The translations under genes were made by a program, and so were the position numbers. The notes below the pieces were generated by a model, which was not told the DNA's origin, ran no database searches, and saw nothing but the letters and a program-made list of their open reading frames with translations. A stretch of 62,152 bases of DNA, the filler included, from Ionaspis alba (taxonomy: Eukaryota), in assembly GCA_964255285.1 (NCBI GenBank). It is 6 parts of 6 records of this genome, joined end to end, with 100 filler letters (N's around TTAATTAATTAA, not from the genome) between each part and the next. Parts side by side here need not be neighbours in the genome. Positions count along the whole stretch, not along the records: positions 1 to 10,373 come from CAXUUL010000610.1; 5 more parts are not named here. One strand, 5' to 3'. Of this stretch, positions 6,494 through 11,466 are shown piece by piece; positions within the stretch are counted from its first letter, which is position 1, and every line of letters starts with the position of its first letter.

Positions 6494-6576
6494 GTATGTA
6501 TGCTCCCAGCCTTGTGTCGCAATCCCTATCCCCTCGAGCCTGTCTGTCTGAATGTCGCTGACCCGGCTGCTCACAG
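6494..6576 (+). other. 5'UTR intron of the C2H2 gene
   Basis: GAG|GTATGT donor at 6494, GCTGAC branch at 6557-6562, TCACAG acceptor ending at 6576, 63 nt before the ATG. Confidence 0.75.
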
Positions 6577-6639
6577 CTTCAGTCACCCGTTAGCCAACCC
6601 TATCCGTTCTACTGGCATCAGTCGTCCAGTGAAAAGGGC

Positions 6640-8970
6640 ATGGCTTTGGTCCAAAACAGCTTGAGTGATTTCGTGCTCTTCCCCCGAGACCAAACCTTCT
6701 TCGAGATGAACCAAGACGACAGCAACGCGCAGTTCCAATACTGCCTGAATCCAGACCTACAACAGGAGTTCGACATGAGCCAATCCACCTTCGACTCCTT
6801 CCAGGGTCTCAGTGCCTTCGCACCCACCGAACAAGCCTACTTTGAGACTCCGCAACTTGTGGTGAATGGTCCGAGGGATACTCTCAAACAACCACACCAG
6901 AGATACACACCTTTGGCATCTCCATCGCTCTCCGCATCGCACTCTCTCGATCATGCTCCTTCCAACTTGTCGCACAATTCCGGTACTTCGGGCCAGAGCA
7001 CAGCCTCATCGGCCGTAGGGTCACCGTACTCTCACACCACCCACAGCCTACCAGGTCAAGAGCCATGGATGAATCCGCCTCACGGCCTGGGCATCGCTCC
7101 AGGAATCGTTCACAACGAGTATGGGACCGAGTCGTTCACTTTCCAAGGTGAGGGCGACCAGCTCAACTACGACAACGTCAAGTTCCCCGATAGCTTCGTT
7201 GGTGAGTTCAACCAGGTTTCTTCGTCGTCAAACCTCGCCAACAGCCCTGTTATGTCTTCTCCTATTTCCTATTCTTCTTCTTCTTCAATGTCTCAGTCTC
7301 TTGTTTCTGCTGTTCCGTCTCCCAATCTGGCATTGGATACCGCGATGAAAGCCCGATCGGTCACTATCGATACCATCTTGGAGGAGATGGCTGGAAACAA
7401 TCACAATTCCGGCCATATGGCTTCTCCTGTTCCTGTTGCTTCGCCATCGGCACCTGCGACAATGCGGACTGCATCGGTTCGGCGCTCGAGATCACCGGAA
7501 CAAGCTGGCCTTGCATGCATTTCACCTACGACACCTGCTTCTGCGATGGCCCAATTGCCCGGTCGCAACAGCCATACATTCATATACCGTCCAGAGTCCC
7601 GGAAACGATCCATCGGAAGCGCCGAAGGCTCCTCCGTACACCAAGGAAGTCCACCTGTTTCGAAGCGACCGGCACCAACTCCCATCTCTCCCAACGAGGC
7701 GTACAGGACTCAATTTCAATCTCCTTTCTTTAGTCAAAGCAGTGGTCGATTTGTCGCTCCATTGCAATCATCTTGTTGGTTTCCTTATGCGTCCTTTCCT
7801 TTACACTTTATGAGGCATTCTGCTGAGAATACTCTACTTCTCTCTCCTATCTCATCTTTCATATTTTACTTGCTGTCAATAGATGCTAACAGCGATCAAT
7901 CAGATCCTTCCTTGATCCAGCCATACGATATGCCCGCTCCTCCACACGCGACTCCTTCTCCCTACCAAACAACACCACAGCAATTCCATCCAGCTCCTCA
8001 CATGTTCCAGCCACCCTCTCCAGCACTATCAGACGCGTCCAGCCAGGACTCATATCGCACTGGATCCAGACAATTCCGAAGCGGGAACCAGTCTCCTTAT
8101 CTCCACAACATGACCTACCAACCCTACCCACCACCAGCCCAAGGGCGCAGACCTTCAGTCAGCTCCTTGCATTCTCGCTACTCGTCTCACGGTAGCCCTC
8201 GCTCGGCAAGCCTTGGCTATGATGAGGAAGGCAAAGAGAGATGCCGTTGCCCCAATCCCGACTGCGGTCGCTACTTCAAGGATCTCAAGGCTCATATGTT
8301 GACACACCAATCGGAACGTCCCGAAAAATGTCCGATCGTCACTTGCGAGTACCATCAAAAGGGGTTCGCTCGCAAATACGACAAGAATAGGCACACCTTG
8401 ACCCATTACAAGGGTACAATGGTCTGTGGTTTTTGTCCTGGTGGAGGCTCTCCTGCTGAGAAGAGCTTCAACCGTGCGGACGTATTCAAGCGACATTTGA
8501 CATCGGTGCATGGTGTCGAGCAAACAGCCCCCAATAGCCGCAAGAAGAGCCCCGGTCTATCATCCTCCAAGAAGTCAACCACCTCCTCTCAAGAAGCCGC
8601 CGGCAAGTGCTCCACTTGTTCCGCCATGTTCAACAACGCGCAAGACCTCTACAATCATCTCGACGACTGCATCTACGCCCAGCTCGAAAACGAAGAACCA
8701 AGCGAAGCAATCAACGAACGCCGCCTCGCCGAAGTCGCCAACGACAAAGCCGTTCACGAGACCCTAGATCGGAACATGGTTTCTTCCTCTCTACCCTCCA
8801 GCACCGAGAGCGGCGCTGGTCTGGAGGAAGAAGACGAGGAAGAAGACGACGACGACGTCGACGAAGACGCCAACGACTCCACCTGGACAGGGCCAGGCGG
8901 CATTGGCTCTCGATCCGGCAAGGGCGGCATCAAATCCACCAAGCGTAACAACAACAACAATTCGAGTTGA
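6640..8970 (+). CDS. C2H2 zinc-finger transcription factor, form ending at the first stop; intron with acceptor 7903 and donor 7202 or 7775
   Basis: Fingers CPNPDC...HMLTH, CPIVTC...HTLTH and CGFC...HLTSVH, plus CSTC...HLDDC. S/P/Q-rich N-terminus and acidic tail. GCTAAC branch at 7885-7890 and CAG at 7901-7903. Confidence 0.9.
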   Translation: MALVQNSLSDFVLFPRDQTFFEMNQDDSNAQFQYCLNPDLQQEFDMSQSTFDSFQGLSAFAPTEQAYFETPQLVVNGPRDTLKQPHQRYTPLASPSLSASHSLDHAPSNLSHNSGTSGQSTASSAVGSPYSHTTHSLPGQEPWMNPPHGLGIAPGIVHNEYGTESFTFQGEGDQLNYDNVKFPDSFVGEFNQVSSSSNLANSPVMSSPISYSSSSSMSQSLVSAVPSPNLALDTAMKARSVTIDTILEEMAGNNHNSGHMASPVPVASPSAPATMRTASVRRSRSPEQAGLACISPTTPASAMAQLPGRNSHTFIYRPESRKRSIGSAEGSSVHQGSPPVSKRPAPTPISPNEAYRTQFQSPFFSQSSGRFVAPLQSSCWFPYASFPLHFMRHSAENTLLLSPISSFIFYLLSIDANSDQSDPSLIQPYDMPAPPHATPSPYQTTPQQFHPAPHMFQPPSPALSDASSQDSYRTGSRQFRSGNQSPYLHNMTYQPYPPPAQGRRPSVSSLHSRYSSHGSPRSASLGYDEEGKERCRCPNPDCGRYFKDLKAHMLTHQSERPEKCPIVTCEYHQKGFARKYDKNRHTLTHYKGTMVCGFCPGGGSPAEKSFNRADVFKRHLTSVHGVEQTAPNSRKKSPGLSSSKKSTTSSQEAAGKCSTCSAMFNNAQDLYNHLDDCIYAQLENEEPSEAINERRLAEVANDKAVHETLDRNMVSSSLPSSTESGAGLEEEDEEEDDDDVDEDANDSTWTGPGGIGSRSGKGGIKSTKRNNNNNSS

Positions 8971-9429
8971 CAATCAACACATCCCCGAGGTGTCGTCTCG
9001 TCGCACGTCGGGGGTGGCAACTCCAGCATCACCAAACCCCCTCGCCACTCCTCCTCCTCCTCCAATCCCCCAAGCACCAGCACCACCACCCGGCGCGTGG
9101 GGCTCACCTACTCCAAAGGCGGCGTCCCGCACGTAGCCAAGGGCCGCAAAAAACGCAAACATTACCCCGTCTCCTGGGGCTGTTCGGCCGACAACATGAA
9201 GATGAAGAAGCGCGTCATGTGTGTTTATGACGGGCAGCGCAGGCTGTGGAAGGATGAGATGATGCTGGATAATGAGTTTGAGGTGCGCATGCGCTTGGGT
9301 GAGGGGGGGGCCTATGTCACCGATTTGGATGTTGCGTGTTTGGAGAAGGCGGAGGCGTTGTTGGGTGCGACGGAGGAGGAGAAGGGACCTTGGGTGAGGG
9401 AGGATGAGGGGGGGAGGGAGATGGTTTGA
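8971..9429 (+). CDS. In-frame C-terminal extension of the C2H2 protein beyond TGA 8968-8970 (candidate stop-codon readthrough product, 152 codons)
   Basis: Same frame as 6640 with no stop until 9427-9429. Encodes GLTYSKGGVPHVAKGRKKRKHYPVSWG...KKRVMCVYDGQRRLWKDEMMLDNEFEVRMRL...YVTDLDV...ATEEEKGPW. T-rich 3'UTR-like sequence starts only after 9429. Confidence 0.7.
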   Translation, partial: QSTHPRGVVSSHVGGGNSSITKPPRHSSSSSNPPSTSTTTRRVGLTYSKGGVPHVAKGRKKRKHYPVSWGCSADNMKMKKRVMCVYDGQRRLWKDEMMLDNEFEVRMRLGEGGAYVTDLDVACLEKAEALLGATEEEKGPWVREDEGGREMV

Positions 9430-10373
9430 TGATGAGGTGATGGGTTTTGGGATTGAAATATCAACAAAAAAATGGGAGTGATGTGGGGGTGTACTACTAT
9501 TTGCTGTTTATTTGGTTTTTTTTTCTGGTTCTTGTTCAGCGATGTTTGTGGAGCGATTCAATTTTTTTTTCTTTTCTTTCGTCTTTGGACTACCTTTTAC
9601 AAAGCGGGTTTTGGATCTTGATGCCAGCTTCTTTGGATTTATGATCTTATGGCTTTCATGAAGGATATGCAATTGGAGGGAAATCTATTGTCTAATGAAA
9701 GAGAGAGAGGGTGTGTGAGAGAGAGAAGGGTTCGACATCAGCAAGCACCAGCGTCTGTCTTGTTGTTCTGCGCATTTGTTGTTGAGCTCAGATCGTGTAC
9801 TTTGTTACCATGGTCCGCGCCAGGGTTACTTGTTTAGTTTTAGTTTTTAGTTGTCAGGTGCCGGTCATCTAGTTCTGTCTATCTACTACTAGCTAGTTTA
9901 GAGAGGGAAAAGCGAAAGGTTGAAGAAAAAAAAACTACCTAATGTCTCTTATTACCAACCATCATAACTCTTGATGTTGAAGTCCACTGTGCGATTGCAT
10001 CACATCGCAGAGAACCCTAAAGCAATAGAAAAAATAGAAACAAACTTCCATCACCTCGGTCAGTCACACACTCGCATGCACACCAACAACAACGTCACCA
10101 TCCTAAATTTGTCACAATCCACTTGCATGCTCGTATGACCATCATCACCACGTTGTAAGATTCGTGGATGGGAGTAAGCTCGGTATCTTCCGCCAGGAAA
10201 CAAAAAGCTTGGCACTACTTTCGAGTTATTTTAAGAACTCGATCTAGTCATAAGGCTGGTCGCTCGCCGTGCACAGCCGCACGCCGTAGCCGCCGGCACT
10301 CCCGAAATAATGCGTCAAGGAAGTGGACAGGGGTACGCGTTGAGATAGCCGAGGGTACGCGTCGCGGTGTTCC

Positions 10374-10473
10374 NNNNNNNNNNNNNNNNNNNNNNNNNNN
10401 NNNNNNNNNNNNNNNNNTTAATTAATTAANNNNNNNNNNNNNNNNNNNNNNNNNNNNNNNNNNNNNNNNNNNN
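10374..10473. other. Artificial contig spacer (44N-TTAATTAATTAA-44N)
   Basis: N runs flank a linker with stops in all six frames. Confidence 0.98.
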
Positions 10474-11466
10474 TCTCCCTCTTTCCCAAGGGCATCCTCC
10501 CAGACGGCCATATGAACTCCTTCCACGCCGGCGACGTCTACCCCGGCGACGTAAGCCCCTCTCTCCCCTCCCTCATCACCTCCCCACTAAATCCTCCATC
10601 TTTCCCCTAGTACGACCCCGCATCCCTGCAATACATGCTCGACTTCTTCCGCACCGTCGCGCAAACCATCCCCTCCAGCTCCCCCTCTCCCAGCTCCGAA
10701 ACACCCCATACGCCACATCCGACCTCAAGCGTCGAGCCCTCGATCCCCGGGTCGGCGCGGGACATGCTCCAGGACCGGGCGGGGATTATTGTCCTGCGCG
10801 AGGATCTGGATTTCTATGCCATTCCCCCCAAAGCGGAGATCGAGCAGCCGGAGATGATCGAGGTGAAGCGCGCGGCGGGACGGGCGTTGTTGGCGCAGGA
10901 TGGGATTTTTTCGGGGCTGAGGAGGAGTGAGGAGACTGGGACTACGGAACAGCATTTGATTGAGATGTTGACGGCTGGGTAGGTTTTCTTATTTTTCCTC
11001 TTCTCCTTGCTTTTTTTACTTCCCCGGAGCTCGTGGTGGTTGGTTTTAGGTGATGGTCCCGGGAATTGTGCTGATGCTGGATAGTGGGTTCAATAATGAT
11101 GATACGTGGGGCCATCGTGCCGGCGAGCCAAATAAGGCGGTTATTTGCAGTCTGGCGCTTGCAAGACTGCGCACGGATATCAGGGGTGGGAGCTCGGAGC
11201 TGGCGAATAGTAATGCGGTGGGCATGGCGCAGAAGCTGTTGTTGTTTTGGCGGAAACCGGCGAGGAGGTGTTGGTGGGAGGGAATCGAATTGGAGAATGT
11301 GGAAGGGGTGGAGGGGGGGAAGTTGAAGGTTTGGATACGGAGGGTTTGGACTTTGGAGATGGTGAGTTCTTTTGTTTTTTATTTTCCCCGTTGCTTTGGT
11401 GCTGGAATTGTGCGTCGAGAAATTTGTGGCTGACTTCTTGATTAGAGTGTTATAGGACTGCGTTAG
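10474..11466 (+). CDS. WHI2: Whi2-like growth regulator/phosphatase activator, 5'-truncated; introns 10551-10610, 10979-11084, 11362-11445
   Basis: YDPASLQYMLDFF, IIVLREDLDFY, EQHLIEMLTAGGF, KLLLFWRKPARRCWW and KVWIRRVWTLEMSVIGLR* are characteristic Whi2 motifs. Splice sites are canonical. Confidence 0.88.

Follow-up and report, generated by a model that had tools for sequence, protein, structure and literature searches.

Programmed readthrough of a UGA stop codon is very probably the best explanation for an in-frame TGA (positions 8968-8970, + strand) that interrupts a C2H2 zinc-finger regulator gene of the lichen-type fungus Ionaspis alba, judging from comparison with orthologous sequences. 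The gene lies in a stretch of 62,152 nucleotides (nt), joined from parts of six records of assembly GCA_964255285.1 and hereafter called the window, whose first 10,373 positions come from CAXUUL010000610.1. An initial annotation of this DNA had proposed such readthrough, and the proposal is supported by a stop and adjoining hexamer that are conserved among orthologues, by purifying selection on the downstream tail, by the lack of a conserved intron across the stop and by complementary DNA (cDNA)-like contigs that carry the stop. The coordinates given there were confirmed throughout: the frame starting at ATG 6640 runs into TGA 8968-8970, which is followed directly by CAATCA (8971-8976), and then stays open for 152 codons (8971-9426) until it closes at TGA 9427-9429. 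The earliest in-frame ATG of this extension is at 9196, and T-rich sequence starts past 9429.

Scanning metagenome contigs for orthologous DNA yielded 80 loci, of which 78 contain both the finger region and the tail, in a shared frame in 77 cases. Taxonomy of these loci was inferred from the nearest named proteins, with the classes of the anchor genera checked in the taxonomy, and it is in this sense that we call loci Lecanoromycete-like or Dothideomycete-like. Exactly one in-frame stop at the homologous position was present in 40 loci, 39 of which keep the frame, while the other 38 are continuous open reading frames (ORFs) without a stop. The 40 stop loci together with the window gave 28 distinct sequences around the stop, and all 28 read TGA followed by CAA-YY-A, with CAATCA in 15, CAATTA in nine, CAACTA in three and CAACCA in one. 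TGACAA and the last A of the hexamer are invariant columns of the alignment. After Gln, the encoded residue can be Ser, Leu or Pro, yet Y-Y-A is held throughout, indicating that the constraint acts on the RNA and not on the protein. Retention of an in-frame TGA with a CARYYA-type hexamer, which the initial annotation had suggested as a check, extends over two fungal classes. It is this conservation, rather than the number of motif occurrences, that makes the element significant, as the 9-mer TGACARYYA occurs five times in the window against 4.92 expected and is no rarer than chance. UGA followed by C is a leaky stop and CARYYA also stimulates UGA readthrough (PMC3542737), and CAA and CAAUUA contexts increase readthrough in yeast (PMC4615788). 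The CAATCA of the window fits CARYYA exactly.

The tail behind the stop is related to a large set of proteins. A search with the extension (residues 777-929 of the readthrough translation) returned 437 proteins with an expect value (E) ≤1e-3, the best at 5.5e-51, and among the best 120 of these 437 the identity to the extension was 56-79%, with the matches located inside full-length C2H2 proteins. These matches identify the tail as the conserved C-terminal domain that belongs to the family itself. All listed relatives with a source name are fungal and are labelled C2H2, zinc-finger protein or 'hypothetical protein', and by these matches the gene appears to encode a fungus-specific C2H2 zinc-finger regulator. 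Within the extension, the conserved domain (9100-9396, +; GLTYSKGG .. EEKGPW) has many invariant columns and includes the basic KGRKKRK stretch (9139-9159, +). After saturated pairs had been dropped, the ratio of nonsynonymous to synonymous substitution rates (dN/dS) of this domain was 0.056 and 0.063 within two stop-bearing clades, compared with 0.042 and 0.041 for the finger region in the same clades, so that the coding conservation predicted in the initial annotation is found in the form of purifying selection on the tail. Of 27 sequences, 17 lack any in-frame Met from the stop up to a conserved KMKM motif, and the 30 codons ahead of this motif gave a pooled, uncorrected ratio of nonsynonymous to synonymous differences (pN/pS) of 0.295 (276 pairs, 24 sequences). 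Conserved codons without an upstream Met imply that translation would have to enter the tail from upstream, through the stop.

Existing gene models deal with this region in mutually inconsistent ways. In an alignment with 15 orthologue models, the models skip from about '...SGKG' to 'V.SHVGGGN' and so omit precisely the segment in which the window has its stop. Models of the same genus also disagree on the junctions: those of two Xylographa models do not coincide, and three Pyrenophora models arrive at three different solutions, one of them with a frame change. By this comparison the junctions look like forced, false introns, and the expectation that gene predictors would bridge the stop in this way or else truncate the protein was borne out.

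A 13-base-pair (bp) hairpin with one G.G mismatch, which had escaped the initial annotation, begins 9 nt after the stop (8980-9016, +; 5' arm 8980-8993, 3' arm 9003-9016; 13 consensus pairs). Standard pairs make up 94.6% of the 336 cells in 27 distinct rows; sliding the 3' partners by one to three columns lowered this share to 40.8-60.4%. Compensatory changes occur at four of the 13 pairs, in 17 cells of the same 27 rows, and none of 500 shuffles matched the observed paired fraction, the number of compensatory cells or the covariation score. Folding of the window sequence gave a minimum free energy of -25.2 kcal/mol (z -2.6), with two of 200 shuffles as good, and folding of the orthologous contig L064 gave -25.9 kcal/mol (z -3.5); both folds begin at nt 13. 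Three loci with a different downstream sequence (L041, L045 and L079) form a different hairpin that starts at the same base. The synonymous substitution rate (dS) is 0.64-0.80 in the 25-30 codons behind the stop versus 1.4-1.9 elsewhere in the gene, a lowering that fits an RNA element overlapping the putative readthrough codons. A scan of 8700-9700 against Rfam returned three chance-level matches only.

A covariance model of the cassette of stop, hexamer and hairpin was built from 23 sequences, which match it by construction. The model matches the window and all 40 stop loci, 37 of them at E≤6e-12 and three weakly, as well as the truncated contig L009, and it matches none of the 38 open loci and nothing else in the 62-kb window; the absence from open loci is the informative part of this search. 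In a quick maximum-likelihood tree of 91 rows, the stop loci form two groups, one with named Lecanoromycetes (support 80) and one with named Dothideomycetes (support 99), and the window adjoins Xylographa and Flavoplaca. Two loci inside the Lecanoromycete-like clade, L018 and L023, are stopless, and here a net deletion of 30 nt took the TGA, the hexamer and the 5' arm of the hairpin together. The 32 remaining open loci cluster with Eurotiomycete and Leotiomycete anchors, and the stop state requires a minimum of two changes on the tree. From these patterns, the cassette appears to travel with the stop. One record, P0060, is labelled Elasticomyces elasticus, which we take to be a Dothideomycete; it has no sign of the stop and groups with Eurotiomycete-like open sequences instead of the Dothideomycete clade. 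Mislabelling or contamination could account for this record, or the exception could be genuine.

Three Dothideomycete-like contigs of 2.9-3.2 kb (L040, L055 and L067) bear on the state of the transcript. They lack an upstream intron of 295-500 nt (GTGAGT or GTAAGT .. CTAAC .. AG, between '...PGCV' and 'DPNL...'), which has been removed precisely; all 11 other Dothideomycete-like contigs examined contain it, and so does L025. All three have a complete ORF from Met 1, and their 5' ends lie within 16 nt of one homologous point. They keep the TGA, the hexamer and the hairpin, and the third base of their stop reads A. More broadly, the upstream intron is missing in ten of the 11 contigs of the same sample prefix that cover the site, from several clades, and present in 15 of the 17 other open loci that cover it. 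Going by these features, we infer that L040, L055 and L067 behave like full-length cDNAs; L059 is probably of the same kind, but is frameshifted. The cDNA-like calls rest on protein-to-DNA matches, the DNA alignment being clean only for L071 versus L040, while the other pairs of cDNA-like and genomic sequences are too diverged and gave fragmented gaps. The initial annotation had named splicing or editing at the stop as what transcripts might reveal, and the orthologous cDNA-like contigs are unspliced there and read A, not G. L064, which has the same sample prefix, retains an upstream intron of about 500 nt (L064:209-710) and may be an unspliced transcript or contaminating DNA.

Several observations weigh against readthrough. 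T immediately precedes the stop in 27 of 28 sequences, which differs from the A-rich context reported as favourable in yeast (PMC3542737). Three annotated orthologue models, two of them from Plenodomus, carry a sense residue at or beside the stop site, two with Gly in the stop column of a MAFFT alignment and one, from Plenodomus, with Trp one residue before 'QPTG', where the alignment is ambiguous; Gly and Trp are each one base change from TGA. The stop would therefore be dispensable in some lineages, and such turnover from stop to sense fits a region that may be translated throughout. An AG stands 21-23 nt behind the stop in all Lecanoromycete-like sequences. Transcript evidence is confined to Dothideomycete-like relatives, with the RNA origin of the contigs deduced from sequence features. 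Synonymous divergence is saturated, and once saturated pairs had been dropped the tail estimates used 11 of 36, 35 of 55 and 39 of 99 pairs. With respect to the hairpin, the number of pairs with compensatory change was matched by 25 of 500 shuffles and that of further pair types by 220 of 500; L001 folds differently (z -0.7); none of the alternative hairpins of L041, L045 and L079 is strong by itself (z -2.0, -0.6 and -1.2); and RNAalifold alone yielded the inner six pairs only. The hairpin was, moreover, derived from the same, mutually related sequences that were used for its statistics, and we regard these comparative statistics as supportive, not as proof.

Removal of the stop by a short spliceosomal intron, or partial splicing in which the long form is spliced and the short form retained, appears improbable. 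The interval 8945-8989 (+; GTAACA .. TTGAC .. GAG, 45 nt) is the only nearby in-frame GT..AG in the window that removes the stop, and its excision would join ...STK-R-VVSSHVGGGN, resembling the orthologue gene models; the AG shared by all Lecanoromycete-like sequences likewise speaks for an intron. As a candidate, this 45-nt in-frame mini-intron was rejected, as it is not conserved and as the region is retained in cDNA-like orthologue contigs. The initial annotation had seen no strong intron spanning the stop, which holds insofar as no conserved intron exists, but it had overlooked the acceptor-like GAG ending at 8989. Among the 28 sequences, we scanned for in-frame GT/GC..AG intervals that remove the stop, starting at most 120 nt upstream and ending at most 40 nt downstream of it, and ten contained no candidate because the homologous bases read CCCCGGGG, without an AG. 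In the others, positions and sequences of donors and acceptors differ between lineages, no donor fits the usual fungal consensus GTRNGT, and L044 is without any GT donor. The AG of the Lecanoromycete-like sequences sits inside the hairpin, at positions that covary with their pairing partners. Every such intron would also need a length that is a multiple of three, and the frame is kept in all but one of the 40 stop loci. Finally, the three full-length cDNA-like contigs, from which the upstream intron is gone, retain the stop region, and splicing leaves the invariant TGA-CAA-YY-A unexplained.

The initial annotation had also offered adenosine-to-inosine (A-to-I) editing of UGA to UGG (Trp) as another route to the same product, by which the long protein would arise at some developmental stage without readthrough. 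Editing that abolishes stop codons is a common phenomenon of sexual development in some filamentous ascomycetes (PMC13123824), and one orthologue model has W beside the stop site. According to the same paper, however, fungal editing prefers UAG as well as adenosines located in hairpin loops, and it is documented from Sordariomycetes. In the present gene, all 28 sequences have UGA; the adenosine to be edited would be preceded by a G and would sit 9 nt 5' of the stem instead of in the loop. The clades that carry the stop are Lecanoromycete- and Dothideomycete-like. As the cDNA-like contigs read A and the CAA-YY-A constraint would stay unexplained, we disfavour editing and consider it very unlikely. 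There is similarly little probability that translation ends at the TGA, with the tail made separately by reinitiation or an internal start, or decaying in a lineage-specific nonsense allele. The three annotated models with a sense residue would mean that stop and sense interchange, and conserved Met residues are available in the KMKMKK motif of the tail. However, carrying the stop is the usual condition in two clades, two changes suffice on the tree, the tail evolves at a dN/dS of about 0.06, equal to that of the fingers, with its frame maintained, and 30 conserved codons precede the first Met without a start codon in 17 of 27 sequences. That the UGA encodes selenocysteine (Sec) is improbable in the extreme. 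In its favour, no stop other than UGA occurs, and the nearby downstream hairpin resembles Sec redefinition elements; yet neither a Sec insertion sequence (SECIS) nor another Rfam family was detected in 8700-9700 at E≤1 beyond the three chance-level matches, and where orthologue models have a sense residue instead, it is G or W and never C. No Sec machinery is known from Ascomycota.

In the readthrough model, ribosomes would pass the UGA at some frequency and with some residue inserted, for which Trp, Cys or Arg would be the candidates at a UGA. Most ribosomes would stop there and release a short protein that ends just past the zinc fingers and an acidic linker, whereas some would decode the UGA by a near-cognate tRNA and go on for 152 codons, thereby adding the basic KGRKKRK stretch and the conserved C-terminal domain of the family. 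The leak would be promoted by the CAA-YY-A hexamer directly behind the stop and by the 13-bp hairpin at +9 nt, a distance that would bring it approximately to the mRNA entry channel when the stop occupies the A site. The short and long isoforms presumably differ in function, for example if a DNA-binding-only form competes with the full-length form. Beyond this, we lean towards the view that UGA, CAA-YY-A and hairpin form an ancient cassette that predates the split of the Dothideomycete- and Lecanoromycete-like lineages and sets the ratio of short to long regulator. In that case, the short form of a developmental-type regulator would consist of DNA-binding fingers only and the full-length form would have in addition the basic stretch, resembling a nuclear localization signal, and the conserved C-terminal domain. 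The family domain would thus be conditional on the leakiness of the stop, and might respond to growth state.

The combination of elements can be compared with known readthrough systems. In type I viral readthrough (tobamovirus replicase; benyvirus and pomovirus coat-protein extensions; UAG-CAR-YYA), the six post-stop bases follow a pattern that those of the window fit and vary within, and benyviruses are tabulated with a type I hexamer plus a compact stem-loop (PMC3542737), like the hexamer and hairpin of the window. In contrast to these viruses, the gene in the window is a cellular one from a fungus, its stop is UGA in every case, and T rather than A precedes this stop. Structures that stimulate readthrough usually begin some 8 nt downstream of the stop (PMC3542737), and with type II viral readthrough (alphavirus, coltivirus and furovirus; UGA with an extended stem-loop about 8 nt downstream) the window shares UGA-C and a stem-loop at 9 nt, but its post-stop triplet is CAA and not CGG or CUA. 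By analogy, the cassette may function as a type I hexamer does together with a spaced stem-loop, in a cellular gene. Readthrough that adds peroxisomal targeting to fungal metabolic enzymes likewise involves a UGA in a cellular gene and a functional C-terminal addition, but a short context there adds a short targeting signal (PMC4207609), whereas here hexamer and hairpin would add a 152-residue tail to a transcription factor. The same hexamer class promotes readthrough in the leaky yeast contexts and the PDE2 and BSC genes (PMC4615788). C-terminally extended regulators with altered activity are described for the Drosophila POU factor Drifter (PMC8417969) and human VDRx (PMC5868278); these are animal genes with other contexts, whereas the extension here is an ancestral, otherwise constitutive family domain. 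Stop-loss A-to-I editing of DBF2 in Sordariomycetes is likewise a conserved route past a stop in filamentous ascomycetes, but it concerns a UAG in a hairpin loop, changes the RNA itself and adds a short, disordered and destabilising tail (PMC13123824).

Our literature searches found no published description of this readthrough case and no paper with both 'nsdC' and 'readthrough'. To our knowledge, the readthrough events known for cellular genes of fungi are few and concern metabolic enzymes or poorly conserved yeast cases, and for PDE2 and the BSC genes we know of neither deep conservation nor a described hairpin. The regulator would hold a complete virus-like signal of UGA-C, type I hexamer and spaced hairpin in a conserved gene of two fungal classes, as assigned by nearest named relatives. 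If the readthrough model is correct, the gene would offer a natural system, with built-in evolutionary controls, for the cooperation of hexamer and structure on the fungal ribosome, in which natural 'revertants' (stop to sense, cassette deletion) could serve as controls. It would also mean that the family's own domain, and not an add-on, depends on recoding, and that Lecanoromycete and Dothideomycete orthologue models need correction. Should the cassette be as ancient as suggested above, fungi would have their first case of a transcription factor under deeply conserved regulatory readthrough.

The remaining parts of the gene, all on the + strand, were placed as follows. Exon 1 begins at the ATG and covers 6640-7774, with an open frame and an N-terminal region that aligns to orthologue proteins. 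It is followed by intron 1 (7775-7903, 129 nt, in frame; GTTGGT..GCTAAC..CAG), the excision of which gives LQSS-Y-PSLIQ as in the orthologue models, and Lecanoromycete-like loci have a gap of about 137 nt at the same spot. The 776-codon frame of the initial annotation does end at the TGA but includes this intron, and the mature upstream ORF has 733 codons. Three C2H2-like fingers and a C2HC-like motif make up the zinc-finger region (8243-8671), a nearly invariant alignment block with weak Pfam matches to zf-C2H2 (E 4.5e-4). By description only, this block fits the mid-protein C2H2-C2H2-C2HC finger domain given for A. nidulans NsdC (AN4263; PMC3749384), and an NsdC-type identity is a lead only; the name NsdC is absent among the source names of the 240 listed relatives. 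At its 3' end, the gene is closed by a true terminator of three tandem in-frame TGA codons (9427-9435), a tight triple array read from the sequence and unlike the single, putatively leaky TGA upstream.

In the local copy of Pfam, the tail matched no family, and a precomputed PF28332 assignment exists for each of the orthologous proteins. A search of the ESM Atlas returned no usable match, and an AlphaFold2 model of the tail from a 46-row alignment reached a mean predicted local distance difference test (pLDDT) score of 55 and a predicted template modelling (pTM) score of 0.24, too poor for a structure search. Two Chaetothyriales models of about 1030 residues (P0089 and P0107) also bear PCI-type Pfam domains and look like annotator fusions of the regulator gene with a neighbouring gene.

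With regard to the assembly, a contig from a public sequencing run (4644 nt, word depth about 80) is identical to the window over 8300-9700. The TGA is thus no slip of this assembly alone, though the window itself may derive from the matching run. Two other runs, from relatives or strains, cover the region in part. Shortly before the stop, consecutive AAC codons encode Asn5 (8947-8958), and a 151-nt contig from one of these two runs (depth 2, spanning 8890-9037) has an extra AAC after 8946 and one further difference; the AAC run is a length-variable microsatellite within the coding linker. Downstream of the gene, a masked or undetermined stretch at about 10400-10480 gives runs of X in ORF translations. 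Upstream of ATG 6640, a candidate 5'-leader intron (6494-6577; GTATGT .. CTGAC .. CACAG) can be read from the sequence.

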